From Octopus vulgaris (lineage: Eukaryota), in assembly GCA_951406725.2 (NCBI GenBank), contig OX597830.1, forward strand, positions 8,060,001 through 8,124,000: DNA of 64,000 bases. Direction: 5' to 3'. Positions 10,530 through 64,000 of this stretch are shown here, piece after piece. Under the pieces are notes generated by a model that saw only the letters and a program-made list of their open reading frames with translations, did no database searches and had not been told where the DNA came from. Position numbers and translations under genes: made by a program. Numbering within the stretch: position 1 is the stretch's first letter; each line of letters starts with the position of its first letter.

Positions 10530-13295
10530 ATAGAAGTACACTTACAGAAGTACACGTACCAAACTAGGCCATACTGCGAACAGACAGAAGGGAAAGGTGC
10601 CATGGTGGAGTTGCTGTATACATCCGTGATGATCTCCCACCCCAGGTCTTACTGTCATACTCAAAATTCGGTATGTGACACTCTAATTGTATACATAAGA
10701 TAACATAATATAGTCATATGCAATACATATTGCCCACCGGATGCTCCAAACCACATAGGCAAGTTTGAAGATTGCCTCACAAGAATTAAAGAAATCCTCA
10801 TGAATCTGGAACACCACGTGACCATATTTCTTATGGGTGATTTCAACTTCCCCAACGTCAAATGGCCCGAAGGTCTCATACTCTCAGGAATGACTCATTG
10901 CAAGCAAGCACAGGTAGAGTCCCTGCTCAACCTCACCAATGCCTTATTCATGGAGCAAGTTGTACTCAGACCAACTAGGGCGAATAACATTCTAGATCTC
11001 TGATTCACGAACAATATGGACATCATTCATGATGTGAAAGTGACACCGACATCAGTTTCGGATCACATCATAATAGAGCTGTCTATGTTTGGGCCGAAAC
11101 AGAGACATACAGCCTAAAGGAAGCACCCGAAATCTCTCCAATCTGAGCTTCCACAAAGCAGATTGGAAATCAATCCAAAAAGAGATCCTCAGAGAGGACT
11201 GTCCGGAATGTCTCTCCACACCAGACATTGACATGAAACTAGAATGCTTCATGTCTTCTGTGCAAGCCGTATGCCAGAAATATATCCCAGAGCACAAGGC
11301 CAAAACAAATAGGAGCAAGATTCCAAGAGATAGGAATATCCTCATGAGACAACGGACGAAGGTTGCAAACCGACTCAACCAACATACTAAAAGTAGCGAA
11401 ACGTCCCGCCTAAAAACAACACTGATGGAGATCGAAAAAAGGCTACAACAATCCTATGTGAGGGAGAAAGCAGACAAAGAAGCCTGGGTTATAAAAAAGA
11501 CACTAAGTCAAACCCAAAGGCCTTCTTTCATTACGCGAAAGAAACAGCCTCAGTACACTACAAGATAGGACCCCTCCTCCAAAAGGATGGCTCCCTCACA
11601 GACAGTTCAACTAAGATCAGTGAGATACTGAATGACCAGTTCAAAAGTGTATCTACCACCCCGTTGGAACACAGACAAGTAAACGAACCAGTGGACTTCT
11701 TTGCCGCCTCACCTATAACCAGCGAGGCAGTTACTATAGAATGCATTAGCGAAGATGTACTACTAGCCATAGATGAAGTGGACACAAACTCAACTGCTGG
11801 TCTTGATGGTTTCCCAGCAATCATCCTCAAATCGTGTAAACATGCCCTGGCAAAACCCCTCCAGATTCTCTTCCAGAGCTTTCTTACAAATGGCAAACTG
11901 CCAAGCAAGCTGAAGGAGGGAATAATATGCCCAATACATAAAGGGGGAAGTAGAGCAGATGCCAAAAACTATAGGCCTATCTCTCTGACTTCACACATCA
12001 GCAAAGTCATGGAACGGATAGTCAGAGGGAAACTAATCGCATTCCTTGAAAAAAATAATTTGCTAAGTGATACCCAACATGGTTTTCGACCAGGTAGGAG
12101 CTGCCTAACCCAGATCTTACAACATTATGACTGGGTGTTGAGGCAGTTACTCAACAAATCAAATGTGGACGTAATCTACATTGATTTTGCAAAAGCTTTT
12201 GAGAAGGTGGATCATGGTATGATATGCCACAAACTACGTGACCTCGGCATAGCTGGAAAACTTGGAGTGTGGTTACATGACTTCCTGAAAGATAGGAGTC
12301 AAGCAGTGGTGGCTAATAGAGCCACCTCTATGAACACACAAATAGTGAGCGGTGTTCCACAGGGCACTGTCTTGGGACCACTGCTTTTTATAATGGCCCC
12401 CTCAGATATGCCCTCAAATGCCCGTATAGCCACTCTGGCAAGCTATGCAGATGATACGAAAGTCTCACAGAAAATACAGAACCCCAGCGATGTTGCACAC
12501 CTGCAGCAGGAGTTGGACTCAATTTACAGATGGGCTGAGGATAATAATATGCAGTTTAATGCTGAAAGACTCCAGGCCCTGCGCTACCAGCATCCAAAAC
12601 TGAATATTAAACTTACAGGGTATACCGGTCCACAGGGAATTTCACCTAAGTCAGTGAGGGACCTTGGTATCGACATGAATGATGATACCTCTTTCCAAGT
12701 GCACAATACCAGGATGGCAACAAAGTGCAGACGACTGGCTGGATGGATCCTAAGAACATTCAGAACCAGAGATGAGGAAACCATGATGGTCCTCTGGCAT
12801 ACATTCGTCCTCAGCCGCCTGGATTACTGCTCGCAGCTATGGTCACCCACCAGTGTGAGATTAACAGCGGACCTTGAAGCAATCCAGAGAAGATTCACAA
12901 AGAAGATCGTCTCTTTGCAACAGCTCAGCTACTGGGAAAGGTTGAAACAGCTAAGACTCTACTCTCTGGAGAGAAGACGGGAGAGGTATGCAGTAATATA
13001 TGTCTGGACGATACTGGAAGGAATTGTGCCAAATTTTGGCATTGAAAGCAACACCAATGCCAGAACTGGACGACACTGCTTCAGGACGAGTTACTGCAAC
13101 AGCCTGGGTTTCAAGGGCCCACAGCTTTTTAATATTCTCCCAAAGTAGATGTAGGGTTTTTTAAATCAAAGCTGGACCTCTTCCTGTCGAGAGTCCCAGA
13201 TGAGCCTACCTCACGGCAAGAGGTGCAAATGTGGGTAGCTATATCAAACTCCATTTTTCATCAAGTGCCACATATTAGAGGAGGCTCCTAGTAAT
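10530..13295 (+). mobile_element. 5'-truncated, decayed CR1-group LINE (APE endonuclease + reverse transcriptase)
   Basis: APE motifs GGVAVYI, IFLMGDFNFP, NILDL and SDH across broken frames; RT motifs NYRPISLTS, QHGFRPGRSC, DFAKAF, GVPQGTVLGPLLF, YADD; C-terminal LSYWERLKQLRLYSLERRR. Several stops and frameshifts. Confidence 0.93.
11664..13148 (+). pseudogene. LINE ORF2 reverse transcriptase segment (494-aa open stretch)
   Basis: Longest non-repetitive ORF, with the YADD motif; the upstream APE part lies in other frames. Confidence 0.9.
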
Positions 13296-31537: not shown

Positions 31538-31675
31538 CGTATAATATATATATATATACACACATACGTATGATATATATATATATACACATACATATAA
31601 TATATATATATGTATATAATTTCATAATGAGATAAAAAAACGAGGCTGTGTAGATTTTAGAACATTTATAAATAG

Positions 31676-31719
31676 GTCTTACAGCTGTTTCCAGGATATT
31701 ATATCCCTTCATCGGAGAC
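31676..31719 (-). ncRNA. Minimal type I hammerhead motif (U4C)
   Basis: Minus strand GTCT-CCGATGA-AGGGATATaATATCCTG-GAAA-CAGCTG-TA-AGAC, with palindromic stem III ACAGCTGT. Upstream on the same strand, KYYWIL...PFCLN resembles a GIY-YIG C-terminus. Confidence 0.75.
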
Positions 31720-32186
31720 GGTGTGAAAAAATGGTTTAGCAATACTTAATTTAGATAAGATACAAAATAGAGAGTGAAGTGGAGGAATGAAAATAGATGT
31801 GAGATATCCAGGGATATTTCATTTGTAGATCCATTATTTAGGCAGAATGGTATACATATAAGATTCCAATACCTTGTGAGTAAAATCCAGTAGTATTTAA
31901 AATTGGTCATTCTAAGTATAGATTTTGTATACAAGGCCATTGAATCAAGGGTTTTATTTAAAGTGACCTAAAAGTAGGGAATTTATTTGTAAGGTCAAAT
32001 CGGAAAAAGGAAGAGAGGAATAAAGAAAAAAATTTTTTTGTATATACACATGCTGATATATGGACCTACGTTGGACTCCTTATTCACATAATCACCGAAC
32101 CTGGAGCTTAACTATGATCTATCCATAGCACTTACTCAGCATTACCTGACACCTTTGGGTCTTATTGACATCATTACCTCTAATAA

Positions 32187-32247
<61 letters not shown>

Positions 32248-32250
<3 letters not shown>

Positions 32251-32645
32251 GATAAATATCAAAGTGAGTTATATACAGTAGCGGTAACACATCGTGACGT
32301 ATTTTTGCCATTTTAATATGGCTAACCCCTAAGGGTGGATGCTACTGTAGTTTTTAGCCCCAGGAGGACACACTCCTCCAGCTGGCCATAGACACACTAT
32401 CTGTGTCCTGTCAGTATTTGCAAAGGGAAGTCATCCTTCCCGTCTTCAACTTATGATACACACGGACTCGAGTTTCGAGGTATTGACCTCTCGTCAGCGT
32501 GTGACAATCATAGTTGTCGGCGAGAATTAGATTTCCTTCACAAATACTTATACTTTTTCCAGCGTCCACTGTCGCTGATAATGAAAAAGTGAAATCAAAC
32601 AATGATAAATATCAAAGTGAGTTATATACAGTAGCGGTAACACTA

Positions 32646-32681: not shown

Positions 32682-32796
32682 GTTGCATAAAAAGAACATC
32701 TATGTGAATGAGTGAGCCATTCTTTGATCGTATTTATCCTAGTAATATATGTGAAGGCAGTCAGGTGCATATATAATTTCTTTATTTGTGAATTCA

Positions 32797-32863
32797 TGCT
32801 ACCATTGGTTTCATGTCAAAAGAAGTAGGAAAATATCCTAGTATCTTAACAATTTTTCAAGCC
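32797..32863 (-). ncRNA. Hammerhead motif with U3-A8 core and long stem II (family B, copy 1)
   Basis: Minus strand GGC-TTGAAAA-attgttaaga..tcttttgacat-GAAA-CCAATGG-TA-GCA. Confidence 0.65.
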
Positions 32864-33584
32864 GATCATATGGAGAAAGGTGTTCGCTTCCATTTGGAGT
32901 GTAATGACAGTCTGATTTAACGAAGGACTTATTCAAAATGCACACCTGAAGAAGCACATTTTACACATTTGATGGAAGGTAGTGATTAATCACTATGTTA
33001 ATTATATCATCCCACCAATGTTCTGCGGGTTTGGCGATATTTGGAAACAATTGTAGTGGATGTGTAAGACTTATTATTCAGTTGACCATATAACTCGTCT
33101 TCAGGCTCTGCAGATTCAATTTTCTCGCTGGGAACGATAAGAAAATCACCAGAAGAATCGCCATTTTTATTAACATCTAGTGAAGCAATATCAGGTTCCT
33201 GTCCCAAAGACAGCTGCTGTATCGCTACATTCTACTAAGGAACATATGATTAAATTTTAGCCAACACTGCTTATCTGAACTGATATAAACACCTTGACTT
33301 TAAAGACAGATGAAACAAACACCAGAGACGTTTAGCCTCAAGCAGAAACTGCAGAAGATATTAAAAGCTCTTTTCTTCGTCGTAGCTAAAGCTGTCGTAA
33401 CTTTGGAAACACTTCCGTATCTTTTCTTGGCTAAATGTCTAGAGTTATATTCTGAGATTCAATATACTATTGAGCCATGCATTAATTAAAGTATCTATCC
33501 CGAATATATTATGTATACAAATTGGTCTATCTAATTAAATTAGTCTATCTGATTAAATTAAACCTCATTAATTATAGGTTTAAA

Positions 33585-43555: not shown

Positions 43556-43806
43556 TTGTTGTTGTTGTTATTATTAAAGATAATAATAATAATAATAATA
43601 ATAGTCGAAGAGCGCGATTCGATTGTAATAGATATTTTATTGGTTGAGCGATATTTCAACAGTAAGTCTGTCTTTGTCGAGTTCAAAATAAGAAGTGATA
43701 AAAATTTAAAATTATAGAAATTGTACAATCTATCTCGTGTCGCAAGTTCGTATCGAACTACTTTGAAATTGTAGCCTTTAGACGGAATAAGAAGATAAGA
43801 GTATTA

Positions 43807-44310
43807 TTGACTTTTATTTCTGACTCCAAGAAAATGAACATTGGAGTATCTGCATGTTGTACCTTGAAAAACAGCCGCAAGAGAAGTAAGCCCTGTTCAT
43901 TGTGCAACAACATGAGTCAAGTGAATTCCATCAAGAATCATAACAGAAATGTTATGATTTATAAAGAAGGTGGGACATATAGCGTTTCCCATATGGTGTA
44001 CGCGGCAGAATGCACGAAACACGACTTGATTTGTGTTGGTTGCACAACAGAACAATTAAACAAAAGGTTTAATCGGCGCAGATTCGACGTCAGGCACAAT
44101 AAAAGTAGTTCGACAGAACTTGCCGAACATTTCGTTTCAAACGGCTGCAATTTTGAAAAAGACTTTTGAAAAGTGCATATTCTCAGAAGATATTCTGAAT
44201 CTGCTTCACTTTCACTTCTCAGAATGCATGAGGAGAAATATGTTTGCGGGTTATTAACATCACGCCCTGGAGGAATAAATAAAATGACAGAAGAATATCA
44301 TCAAAACTGT
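43807..44310 (+). pseudogene. Penelope-like element GIY-YIG endonuclease fragment
   Basis: PCSLC..MVYAAECTKHDLICVGCTTEQLNKRFNRRR..ELAEHF..HEEKYVCGLLTSRPGGIN follows the PLE pattern VY..C..YVG.T...L..R...AEHF...E...L.T..P.GLN; frame broken near 44169. Confidence 0.82.
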
Positions 44311-44562
44311 TTGATTAAATATTCTCCTTTTTCTCTCTTTTCTTTCCTCTTTCTTTCAGTCTTTTTTCTCTATCTTCTGTTTTCTGTATTTTTCTTTTCG
44401 CCTGTTATAAAATTGAAACTTAATGACTGATGATGTCATTCCACCAACGTGTGGACGCTGCTTGCTCTCGTTCATACTTTACATTAAATTTCTATAATTC
44501 TATTCTGGTTAAGCTTGCTGGCCTCTTTATTATTATTTTTAATAATTGTAATATCTTATTAA

Positions 44563-53495: not shown

Positions 53496-53567
53496 TAAAT
53501 GTCAAACGCTGAAATGAGTGATCAACAACGCATTGGTGGATATATAATTTCTTTATTTGTGAACTAA

Positions 53568-53633
53568 GGCTACCATTGGTTTCATGTTAAGAGAAGTAGG
53601 AAAATATCCTAGTCTCTTAACAATTTTCAAGCC
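53568..53633 (-). ncRNA. Hammerhead motif with U3-A8 core and long stem II (family B, copy 3, best preserved)
   Basis: Minus strand GGC-TTGAAAA-tTGTTAAGAGAc TAGGA tattt TCCTA ctTCTCTTAACAt-GAAA-CCAATGG-TA-GCC. Confidence 0.75.
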
Positions 53634-53711
53634 GATCACATGGAGAAAGGTGTTCGCTCCCTTTTGGAAAACAGTCTCCAAAAGCCTATTTTTCCAAAAT
53701 GGAGGCGAACA

Positions 53712-54162
53712 CCATCTGGCTATACGACACACGATTTGTGTCCTTATATTTTCGAACAGAGGAGGTTAGCACCCCCACATTAGGTTGGCAAATAATCGTT
53801 ACTTCAAAGTGCTGCTACTGAATATCTCTCGTTGAAAAATTTGGGAACAACAATATTTCTATTTATTCGATCAGTGACTGTGAGTCACTTAGGAAAATAT
53901 TTATATTTTCGAATGGGTGTTTAGTAGTGCCATCTCAACCAAAGAGTTATTCTGTGCGACGAAGAGGAATAACCCTGAAACCGCACGGTCCACAGATACT
54001 GCTTTGTGCTGTGTGAGGGTGCTAGCCTTCCCTGTTCGAAAATATAAGGACACAGATCGTGTATCGTATAGCTAGCTGGAGACGCTGTCTCCTGGGGCTA
54101 AACAACAGCAGCATTCACCCCAAATGGGACTGTCGCATTAGGTTGGCAAATAATCGTTACTT
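53712..54162 (+). mobile_element. Retrozyme-like element, 358-nt unit with a 27-bp direct repeat and an inverted 5' segment
   Basis: 53778-53804 equals 54136-54162; 53712-53779 is an inverted copy of 54012-54079; 54047-54162 is the diverged reverse complement of ~32295-32410. Confidence 0.82.
53951..53996 (+). ncRNA. Type I hammerhead motif (U4 deleted)
   Basis: TCTGTG-C-GACGA-AGAGGaataaCCCT-GAAA-CCGcaCGG-TC-CACAGA; perfect 6-bp stem I, GUC triplet. Confidence 0.75.
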
Positions 54163-54179
54163 TATATATATACATATAT

Positions 54180-59698: not shown

Positions 59699-59776
<78 letters not shown>

Positions 59777-59861
59777 AGGTTGAAAAGGAACACATGAGTT
59801 GATATATACGTGGAAAAAAGTCAAGGTAGAAAATGCTAAAATAATTTTATAAAAAACATTT

Positions 59862-59897
59862 CAGTACCGGTTTCAGCCATTCAGACTTTTTCAACTG
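59862..59897 (-). ncRNA. Minimal hammerhead motif with U3-A8 core (family C, copy 2)
   Basis: Minus strand CAG-TTGAAAA-AGTC tgaat GGCT-GAAA-CCGG-TA-CTG, with palindromic stem III ACCGGT; the host element has a 26-bp inverted repeat at 59816-59841/60067-60092. Confidence 0.72.
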
Positions 59898-60092
59898 TAA
59901 TTATAGAAAACAATTAAATTCTGGGAAAATTAAAAGAAAAGTTTTTTTAAAAGAATATTTGCAAAGTATTCAAATACAAGGGACATTTTCCTTGTTTCTG
60001 CCTGTTTCTGTCTCTCTTGTTTACTCTTGAGGGTTCGAGTACCGAAGTGTTTCTTTTTATAAAAATTTTTAGCATTTTCTACCTTGACTTTT

Positions 60093-62135: not shown

Positions 62136-63442
62136 ACATTACTACCACCACCACCACTACTACTACTACTAATACTAATACTAATACTATTATATAAATA
62201 ACTTCCGTGAAGTTTCTGACTTTTAAATGAAGTGAAATAGTTTCTGTCTGGAATCGAAACCGCGTCATAGATTTGGATCTGTGCTGTACTAACAACTACA
62301 ATAATAACACTCATAGCTAATAGCAATTATTATTAATTAAGAATACACGAAACCCGAAGACATATGAAGGTTAAAGGTCTTTTGATCAACATACATACAC
62401 GTGTAAACACACTCACACACAACCATACACATACACATACACACTCTCTTTCCACATGTCTTCATAGATACATTGACACTCAAGCACACATATACATACA
62501 CACCACACACACGCACACAAACACATACACACACTTATACGCAAACACCAACAACCGACTCGAAAACACACGTTCCAACGCCTACAACGAATACTGAACA
62601 CGTGACCCGGAAGTTAAGGGTCCTCTATTTTCGTTTCTTGGTCCTCCATTACCAACAACAAAAACCATGACGTCGATGAAGGCGACGATTCTTTAATTAT
62701 ATAATAATTATTATCTCTTAATTAAATAATCATAATAATTATATAAAAAAAATATAACGAATGCAGCGAAAATGAAGCAAATATTTTATCTCAGAAAAAA
62801 ATATATCAAAGAAGTCTTGACCATCGGAAAATAAAGATGAAGAATGAAATACAAGCGGAAGTAGCAACGCTGTCGCTAGAGGGCGGTAGCATGTCAGAGG
62901 CAGCAAAAATACGTTTCTAGAACCTTCCACGTCCACTACTTTTGTATCCGTTTCCGGTTGCAACAAAACCATGGATACGCATACACATGCAAGCACGCAC
63001 ACTCACACACACACGCACGCACACACGTACTTATATTTACAGACACGCACATACATATACATAATGTTCATAATAATAATAGTAATTATAACGATGATGA
63101 TGATGATGATGATAGTAATAATAATAATAACAATAATATTAACAATAATAATAATAATTAGTAGTAGCAGCAGAAGCAGTAGTAGTAGTTGTTGTTGTTG
63201 TTGTTGTTGTTGTTGTAGTAGTTTTCTTTATCAGCCAGAAGAACAATATATATACACAAATATTGGCCACAATGACGAAATCTGAGATGTTTATGTATAA
63301 TGCACACGCTCAATATATACATATATATATACATATATATATACCGGAGTAAACACATAAATGTGAAACAAGGTGGAAAAAAGAGTACTCAAATACTAGG
63401 GGTAGAGTAATATGCTTTATTTTAAGCAGCAGAAAATTCAAC

Positions 63443-63489
63443 AAAATCTGTTACTCTGAGTTTCTCGTTGCCGTTCATCAGACAGTTTT
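63443..63489 (-). ncRNA. Minimal type I hammerhead motif
   Basis: Minus strand AAAACTGT-CTGATGA-ACG gcaa CGA-GAAA-CTCAGAG-TA-ACAGATTTT. Intact core, GUA triplet, short GNRA-capped stem II; lies in a ~150-bp island between (TA)n runs. Confidence 0.8.
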
Positions 63490-63606: not shown

Positions 63607-63676
63607 TTCACACATATGTGCATATGGTTTTGCATATAAGCAAAAATTCTGGTAATAAAATCTCTGAGAGATCAGT

Positions 63677-63756
63677 GCAGTAGTTGTATTGACAGGTAAT
63701 ATTCGTAGCCACTTTAACATGGCTGTCCGCTCGAGCGGACTCTACTGCGATTTTTT
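63677..63756 (+). ncRNA. 72-nt cloverleaf (four-way junction) followed by T6, homologous to 32274-32355
   Basis: GCAGTAG/CTACTGC closing stem enclosing GTATT/AATAT, AGCCA/TGGCT and GTCCGC/GCGGAC arms. Confidence 0.6.
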
Positions 63757-63849
63757 AACCCCAAGTGGACATCTCCTCTAGATGGTTAACGATGCACAGC
63801 TGCAGTCGATAAAATTGCGATCTGCTATCATCTCTAGCAGACGAGGTGT

Positions 63850-63900
63850 CCAGTATTGAGGAGTGGCAGAAATAGCCCGAAACCAGGACTCGTATACTGG
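63850..63900 (+). ncRNA. Type I hammerhead motif (C3U)
   Basis: CCAGTA-TTGAGGA-GTGGCagaaataGCCC-GAAA-CCAGgaCTCG-TA-TACTGG; perfect 6-bp stem I, GUA triplet. Confidence 0.75.
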
Positions 63901-64000
63901 TGGTAGGGGTTCGCTCCCCTGCTCATAATTTTATCGGTTGCAGCTTAGAACGACTTCAAAAATATTTAAAATCAGTGCGACCCAAATGTGTGTGTGTGTG

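Follow-up and report, generated by a model that had tools for sequence, protein, structure and literature searches.

A predicted, conserved RNA domain in octopus hammerhead retrozymes and its relation to Penelope-type insertion ends

Introduction

Metazoan non-LTR retrozymes are, in the available portions of two reports, tandem units of about 150–450 bp that carry a type I hammerhead ribozyme, code for no protein, and lack an LTR, PBS, or PPT, with self-cleavage and circular RNA in vivo as further marks (PMC7229834; 10.64898/2026.07.22.740005). The same portions place them together with Penelope-like elements, whose enzyme they are proposed to borrow, and describe them with a generally self-paired fold, with no conserved covarying domain or mapped start sites (PMC7229834; 10.64898/2026.07.22.740005). 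According to the available part of the latter report, the retrozyme families of Xenopus are in many cases similar to an autonomous element in its terminal repeat (10.64898/2026.07.22.740005).

The purified Penelope-like protein of Poseidon PAc (Anolis) starts reverse transcription at two internal positions in an AC-rich stem-loop, which match genomic tail ends, and AT-rich DNA is cleaved on both strands before reverse transcription (PMC11167929). The accessible part of a study that includes the structure of Neptune/Nematis and Naiad elements describes a Penelope-like tail between two fixed ends (PMC8557442). The recognition and copying of animal retrozymes have so far been proposed, and the choice of internal starts by Penelope-like elements is known from one element in vitro.

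A further class to be compared, tRNA-derived SINE heads and mascRNA-type tRNA mimics, is marked by A and B boxes, a T-loop, and a 5' head position. In tRNAs and SINE heads derived from them, the anticodon and T loops have 7 nt and the T arm stacks directly onto the acceptor stem. The elements reported here belong to a class that is already known; what is new is a conserved domain and its link to start sites. No description of this domain was found in the literature searched, a scope outside of which lie supplements (including the folds of PMC7229834) and Repbase. In the available portion of the main text of an octopus repeat annotation, the words 'ribozyme' and 'retrozyme' are absent (PMC13282606).

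Retrozymes in the analyzed window

The window is a stretch of 64,000 nt (C17:8060001–8124000) in a genome of 2.8 Gb with 227 contigs and many microsatellites. An initial annotation had reported a tRNA-sized cloverleaf with downstream hairpins in three diverged elements, and the helices that it quoted are present in copy 1 (32274–32349), copy 2 (63677–63748), and copy 3 (53778–54164). In copy 1, these comprise a 9-bp closing stem, the GCCA/TGGC and ACCC/GGGT arms, a T-run, AGCCCCAG, and two downstream hairpins that reach to 32408. All three module-bearing elements are non-coding hammerhead repeats of about 350 bp, i.e., non-LTR retrozymes. Their parts are as follows, with sites A and B denoting two fixed 3' ends of insertions that are treated further below.

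32250..32602, minus strand: family F1 retrozyme monomer (copy 1), 353 bp, from self-BLAST and genomic copies in arrays
32603–32643, next to the F1 monomer on the plus strand: 41-bp repeat that makes copy 1 a partial tandem, from self-BLAST
32459..32503, minus strand: predicted type I hammerhead ribozyme, from a motif scan and Rfam RF00163 (Hammerhead_1)
63634..63820, RNA on the minus strand: family F2 copy (copy 2), with its 3' end at site A (about 63634–63638) and its module up to 63819
63677–63748, minus strand: junction of copy 2, from sequence reading
63820..63945, plus strand: inverted F2 arm; it holds a decayed hammerhead (about 63850–63901), from comparison with intact F2 members
53778..54164, RNA on the plus strand: family F3 copy (copy 3), which ends 3' at site B and there meets (TA)n (54164)
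53951–53996 (approximate), plus strand: decayed hammerhead within the F3 copy
54037–54164, plus strand: module within the F3 copy
53712..53779, minus strand: inverted arm of the F3 copy, an 88% reverse match to 54012–54079, shortened by another repeat

Copy 1 is flanked by (TA)n and abuts (TA)30, the TA tract spanning 32189–32248. Its hammerhead has a 6-bp stem I, the core CUGACGA, stem II, GAAA, a short palindromic stem III, and GUC, and matches RF00163 at 32.2 bits (E 3.3e-6), just below the gathering threshold of 34. The predicted cut site lies between 32465 and 32464. Copies 2 and 3 represent older families and are partly decayed, including their hammerheads. Copy 2 carries AACCCCAA where copy 1 has AGCCCCAG, and its downstream hairpins are decayed. 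Copy 3 scores 78 bits with model R1, which was itself built from F3 relatives; its module is split across the unit junction, such that the copy ends inside the cloverleaf and the missing strand is found in the preceding partial repeat. The middle arm of this cloverleaf is decayed. By eye, a common repeat lies beside copies 1 and 3 in opposite orientations (32770–32900 and 53520–53711), and at the latter position it truncates the inverted arm of copy 3.

Families and genomic copies

At least seven families (F1–F7) have a common domain of about 175 nt. Four of these (F4, F5, F6, and F7) were found by following variants, and F4 and F1b are represented by two and three copies, respectively. First-look searches of the genome returned 2,693 candidates for the F1 unit, 1,958 for F3, and 1,219 for F2. 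Scoring of 40 F1 candidates yielded 160 matches, mostly 98–99% identical, and the F1 copies are arranged within (TA)n as tandem and inverted arrays with 353-bp spacing. A 21-position pattern of the module had 1,799 matches in the genome, versus 0 for the reversed control.

In the families examined, the repeat units are 349–361 bp long, stand in tandem arrays, and have one hammerhead each; the length is similar to that of the retrozymes of mussel (350–390 bp) and axolotl (330–350 bp), as given in the accessible parts of the two reports (PMC7229834; 10.64898/2026.07.22.740005). Visual or pattern-based reading identified the hammerhead motif in F1, F2, F3, F5, F6, and F7; in F4 it was recognized by shared flanks only. 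In families whose upstream part was read, it lies about 80–100 nt upstream of the domain, on the strand opposite to the one initially annotated. The F6 hammerhead is a U3-A8 core variant of a kind described in the available text of PMC4209133, which likewise reports short palindromic stem III helices in Penelope-like terminal-repeat hammerheads.

Penelope-type proteins match 4 of 221 loci, none as an ORF of a retrozyme unit, and the F1 unit is without any ORF of 100 aa. An ORF with reverse transcriptase (RT) and GIY-YIG, as expected of an autonomous Penelope-like element, occurs only in separate elements. With units of 349–361 bp, one hammerhead, and no ORF, the elements fall under the sequence definition of non-LTR retrozymes, and their identity as such is almost certain. 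Contigs from three runs guessed to be RNA and from one unlabelled run cover the F1 unit. Among these, a 383-nt contig is 30 nt longer than the F1 unit and wraps round it, as either a tandem or a circle would, and was therefore given no weight.

Predicted architecture of the RNA domain

On the hammerhead strand, the domain runs in the order H1, H2, junction (P1, arm 1, arm 2, and a junction strand with an optional arm 3), H5, and H6. In copy 1, its elements are as follows.

32390..32408, minus strand: hairpin H1 (the GACAC/GTGTC hairpin of the initial annotation), from the copy 1 fold and most family majorities; outside the pair counts
32355..32388, minus strand: hairpin H2, with a 5-bp outer stem, a 4x3 internal loop, and a 6-bp inner stem (AGCCCCAG plus GAGGA/TCCTC), from covariation
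32274..32349, minus strand: multibranch junction (the 'cloverleaf'), from covariation and the circular fold
32349–32341/32282–32274, minus strand: closing stem P1, 9 bp in copy 1
32336–32325, minus strand: arm 1, part of the junction
32322–32307, minus strand: arm 2, part of the junction
32306–32283, minus strand: junction strand with optional arm 3, part of the junction
32248..32273, minus strand: tail past P1, which contains H5 (decayed in F1a) and H6 (32250–32261), from insertion ends and the TA tract

The module as initially delimited is present but incomplete, as two more hairpins (H5 and H6) lie beyond the closing stem. When the whole F1 monomer was folded as a circle, P1 pairs had probabilities of 0.99–1.0. 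Two arms of the supposed three-arm cloverleaf are kept in all families, but the third is missing in F7. In this family, arm 3 is unpaired, whereas pairing holds for both other arms (with a compensatory change in arm 2), for a P1 of 10 bp, and for H1, H2, H5, and H6. In F1a and F1b, arm 3 is re-registered. Because of its loss in F7, the conserved core is modeled not as a full cloverleaf but as a three-way junction formed by P1, arm 1, and arm 2, in which the 22–24-nt strand between arm 2 and P1 is accessible and arm 3 is optional. The stop-codon-like triplets in the loop of arm 2 were dismissed as AU-rich variation of a 6-nt loop. The AGCT palindrome in the internal loop of H2 (32380–32383) is invariant in ten subfamily majorities and altered in F7; it is possibly a dimerization or protein site.

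The resemblance to tRNA had led to proposals of a tRNA mimic or a Pol III-related element, with an ordinary tRNA-derived SINE head as the contrary outcome. In this reading, Pol III would transcribe the domain, or RNase P/Z would process its L-shaped fold to a discrete RNA of about 72 nt. A length of 72–77 nt and a cloverleaf outline in most families are indeed tRNA-like, several families have an 8-bp closing stem and three arms, and F2 has one B-box-like 9-mer, with one mismatch, on the strand initially annotated. The arm geometry, however, departs from that of tRNA. Arm 2 closes on a loop of 6 or 8 nt. Arm 3 pairs over 4 bp around a loop of 4 nt, is joined to the closing stem by a linker of 2 nt, and is dispensable, being absent in F7. 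ARAGORN found no tRNA in the window, Rfam at gathering gave no match there, and the module itself had no Rfam match even at E 10. In none of the ten majorities did either strand contain an A box or an exact B box, and the T-loop is also lacking. Moreover, the domain sits close to where insertions have their fixed 3' ends, and those that end at site B cut through it, whereas a SINE head is located at the 5' end. Membership in the tRNA family is largely refuted by these observations, and a tRNA-related origin or function of this kind is very unlikely.

Probable selection on the fold, and its strand

The region 32274–32410 folds better than all of 200 shuffles on either strand, with z values of -3.2 (plus) and -4.1 (minus) and energies of -43.7 kcal/mol for the plus strand versus -54.1 kcal/mol for the minus strand. 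Consensus folding of 23 real copies with RNAalifold gave -14.27 kcal/mol and 24 pairs for the hammerhead strand, versus -7.26 kcal/mol and 13 pairs for the other. Unconstrained folds of the ten subfamily majorities recovered H2, P1, and arm 2 in all cases and the remaining helices in most.

Pairs were counted on these ten majorities (56–94% alike), with H1, H6, cluster singletons, and F7 left out. Among the 37 pairs, 336 of 370 cells are Watson-Crick, and 17 pairs are compensatory (at least two Watson-Crick types) versus 5.2±1.8 expected, a number reached in none of 10,000 permutations in which partner columns sharing the majority letter were permuted. Compensatory changes were found in five of the 11 pairs of H2 and in 11 of the 21 junction pairs (3.5 expected). 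Since best pairing had been used to place arm 1 and H5, the homology-anchored junction pairs without arm 1 were counted separately, and eight of these 17 are compensatory versus 2.3 expected. When 21 real copies were aligned without fitting to the fold, pairing was seen in 90.9% of the 563 cells, compared with 28–50% when partners are slid; the covariation score exceeds that of all 500 shuffles, and the number of double-changed pairs is reached by 65 of the 500. The covariation that was initially called for as a test is significant, and the claim of a selected RNA structure is supported.

The initial annotation wrote the module on its own strand while holding that the functional strand could not be determined by eye. 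The orientation of the hammerhead and the polarity of insertion ends place the RNA on the reverse strand, and the latter sets the strand independently of folding energy. A strand test based on the asymmetry of G-U versus A-C was not significant (8 versus 6 columns, p 0.40), and, against this placement, the strand opposite the hammerhead gives the slightly better fold for the F7 majority (-67.4 versus -63.2). Between families, the domain is no more conserved than the rest of the unit in a crude comparison of single copies (0.62 versus 0.60; shuffled 0.53).

Paired changes may also arise at the level of DNA or cDNA, through quasi-palindrome correction during copying and with no selection on an RNA fold. 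The non-significant G-U/A-C asymmetry in the counted pairs and the many inversions made by these elements are consistent with such a process. However, the compensated helices are 4–8 bp long and nested in a multibranch fold, the strands of P1 lie 56–61 nt apart, linker lengths are kept, and the extended H2 needs G-U pairs that only the hammerhead strand offers. We therefore consider this explanation highly improbable, and an RNA fold on the hammerhead strand is very probably under selection.

Insertion ends

Ends were mapped against tripled real units at the best-scoring loci, with some queries favoring site A. Two positions in copy 1 correspond to the fixed 3' ends.

32291, minus strand: site B, the internal one of the two fixed 3' ends, within the junction strand (arm 3 loop), from F1 ends
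32245–32249 (approximate), minus strand: site A, second fixed 3' end, from F1 ends; copy 1 meets (TA)30 there

Among 42 F1 3' ends, 24 fall at site B (unit positions 171–174) and 12 at site A (216–220), 36 together. The corresponding numbers at sites B and A are 11 + 18 (29 of 45) in F2 and 25 + 13 (38 of 46) in F3. F5 has 3 + 20 (23 of 39) and F6 has 9 + 20 (29 of 33), where site A counts, as in F7, are inflated by queries that start or stop there; site A was left uncounted in F7. This last family was found after the model was set and was used as a check, and 11 of its 12 internal ends lie 17–23 nt past arm 2. The 5' ends (35–59 per family) are scattered across the unit.

Site B lies 10–20 nt past arm 2; in families that have arm 3, it falls in the loop of that arm (in F2, at its 5' strand or the loop edge). 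It coincides with TA/AT microhomologies, is broad in F3 (19 nt), and is rare in F5 (3 of 39 ends). Site A follows hairpin H6, at 40–47 nt past P1 (26–30 nt in F1). From the distribution of ends, we infer that site B is a start of reverse transcription.

The insertions have a Penelope-like signature, namely a partial tandem, an inverted 5'-truncated arm, and an optional tail between two fixed ends, and retrozyme mobilization is, with high confidence, of the Penelope type. In the available texts on endonuclease-positive Penelope-like elements, partial tandems, inverted 5'-truncated arms, and the two-ended tail recur (PMC11167929; PMC8557442), as do AT-rich or microsatellite targets and a hammerhead upstream of the starts (PMC11167929; PMC8557442; PMC4209133). 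Unlike those elements as there described, the retrozymes here have no ORF, and their tail measures 43–60 nt, not 30–40 nt (PMC11167929; PMC8557442). The start reported for the Penelope-like protein lies in a coding stem-loop (PMC11167929), whereas here it would lie in a conserved multibranch junction, about 175 nt past the cut site in F1.

The domain was also initially proposed to be an unrecognised ribozyme, and a conserved multibranch fold with no Rfam match would suit a second catalytic RNA. This proposal is unnecessary, as the families already have a type I hammerhead elsewhere in the unit (F4 by shared flanks only). In addition, the 5' ends of copies are not clustered in the domain, the junction nucleotides vary freely, and F7 alters the internal loop of H2. 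The chance that the domain is a second ribozyme is very small.

Candidate helper elements

ORF-bearing Penelope-like elements reside in the same genome, with the same (TA)n target and a two-ended tail. The candidate helper N1 has 20,155 candidates, many with an open frame of 784 aa that contains RVT_1, a CxxxxCxxC finger, and GIY-YIG. This finger, a clade mark in the available part of PMC8557442, points to the Neptune or Nematis clade. N1 carries a hammerhead itself, and its ends fall at two positions next to TA that are about 30 nt apart (19 and 15 of 35). Young TA-targeting elements of this type are thus candidates for the helpers of the retrozymes.

Chimera-like junctions of retrozyme and helper were found at two of the 221 loci. 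At L003 (1270–1290), an F1 array is fused head to head with a 5'-truncated N1, with no TA tract; at L318 (1380–1500), an F7 array adjoins an N1-related ORF fragment, again without a TA tract. These are possibly mixed-template insertions and are only suggestive of helper use by retrozymes.

Carriers of the domain were searched by way of the GIY-YIG family of the window, N1, Pfam GIY-YIG, and the element at 31620–32150. The domain is absent from the terminal repeats of ORF-bearing Penelope-like elements at 104 loci (31, 10, and 63) of the best-scoring families, and strong domain matches at those loci are separate retrozyme insertions. While Xenopus retrozymes often resemble an autonomous terminal repeat (10.64898/2026.07.22.740005, as far as available), here the domain is found in none of those examined. 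The autonomous elements of this genome produce two fixed ends from a short AT-rich stretch of about 60–70 nt, in contrast to the multibranch junction of the retrozymes, and the domain is therefore unneeded for this in cis.

Several minor features of these elements were also recorded. Canonical Penelope-like elements are described as having a single ORF. In N1 (L246:1090–4615, also L243 and L247), an upstream ORF of about 400 aa overlaps the RT frame. The latter has no Met before residue 68 and may be entered by frameshift or splicing. The autonomous N5 (68% to N1; L259–L276) has an F6-like hammerhead core and stem III about 600–900 nt past the GIY-YIG match, and a small CTC...GAG hairpin in its tail is reminiscent of H5. 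This likeness to the retrozymes possibly reflects shared ancestry or a shared minimal signal.

Proposed role of the domain

Among the four roles that were initially considered for the module, a recognition signal for the helper RT fits best because both fixed ends track the structure. We favor, with moderate confidence, the reading that the conserved domain is a handle that positions a borrowed Penelope-like RT. A multimeric transcript would be cut by the hammerhead and then possibly circularized; F1 would probably be cut as a dimer because its stem III is short. A Neptune/Nematis-type protein would bind the retrozyme RNA in trans, and its GIY-YIG domain would nick (TA)n on both strands. Reverse transcription would then start internally, either at site B (in the junction strand, 10–20 nt 3' of arm 2) or at site A (just after H6). 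Copying beyond one unit would produce tandems, and priming on both strands would produce inverted arms.

This reading is limited mainly by the absence of the domain from autonomous elements and by a similarity between families that is the same for the domain as for the whole unit. Since similarity between families is no higher in the domain than elsewhere in the unit, the end positions could be merely co-inherited. Alternatively, in retrozymes that are mobilized by Penelope-like elements all the same, the domain may serve another step. It could be an internal promoter for transcription, keep the circle stable or folded, aid export, or dock on a host complex, e.g., the ribosome, to capture new helper protein; the starts would then be set by co-inherited local AT-rich sequence. 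Alu and SRP provide an analogy for such docking. The lack of the domain in all autonomous elements examined would fit a need specific to non-autonomous RNAs, homology spans whole units and not the domain alone, and H1 and H2 covary despite their distance from both ends. However, site B stays in the junction strand even though its sequence differs among families, site A tracks H6 even in F1, in which the tail is about 15 nt shorter, and compensatory pairs favor an RNA structure over a DNA promoter. A role in another step is possible but, on this evidence, unlikely.

A more specific form of the handle reading is that retrozymes have an RNA aptamer of their own, which the helper RNA lacks and which would capture the telomerase-related Penelope RT in trans and present an internal template strand beside a three-way junction. 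By analogy, telomerase RNA has junction and template-boundary elements that the domain may loosely resemble. This proposal is tentative and we regard it as rather doubtful. If true, a portable handle of about 175 nt would set two start points on any attached RNA, and the retrozymes would be a natural model for how non-coding RNAs come to programme telomerase-like enzymes.

Seven diverged families with one fold, thousands of copies that mark starts, and a young intact helper candidate form a ready test set for the handle reading, with natural compensatory variants, a family without one arm, and predicted start coordinates.

Other repeats in the window

Several other repeats were observed. At 31620–32185 on the minus strand, a different family of Penelope-like elements (5,386 candidates) is present with its 3' end, and no domain lies behind it; its hammerhead, at about 31680–31725, has the core change of U4 to C that is also seen in F3. 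A 3' fragment with GIY-YIG at 43702–44520 (plus strand) comes from a third family of Penelope-like elements (2,915 candidates), in which several copies end in TAA/TTA trinucleotide repeats, not TA. An older family related to N1 is represented at 59771–60039 by a 72–79% match to the N1 terminal repeat. An additional short repeat with a hammerhead-like motif and a (TA)n end is found at 63300–63480 (minus strand) and at L318:2257–2400. Finally, a LINE-like frame of 583 aa with RVT_1 (E 1e-27) occupies 11397–13148 on the plus strand.
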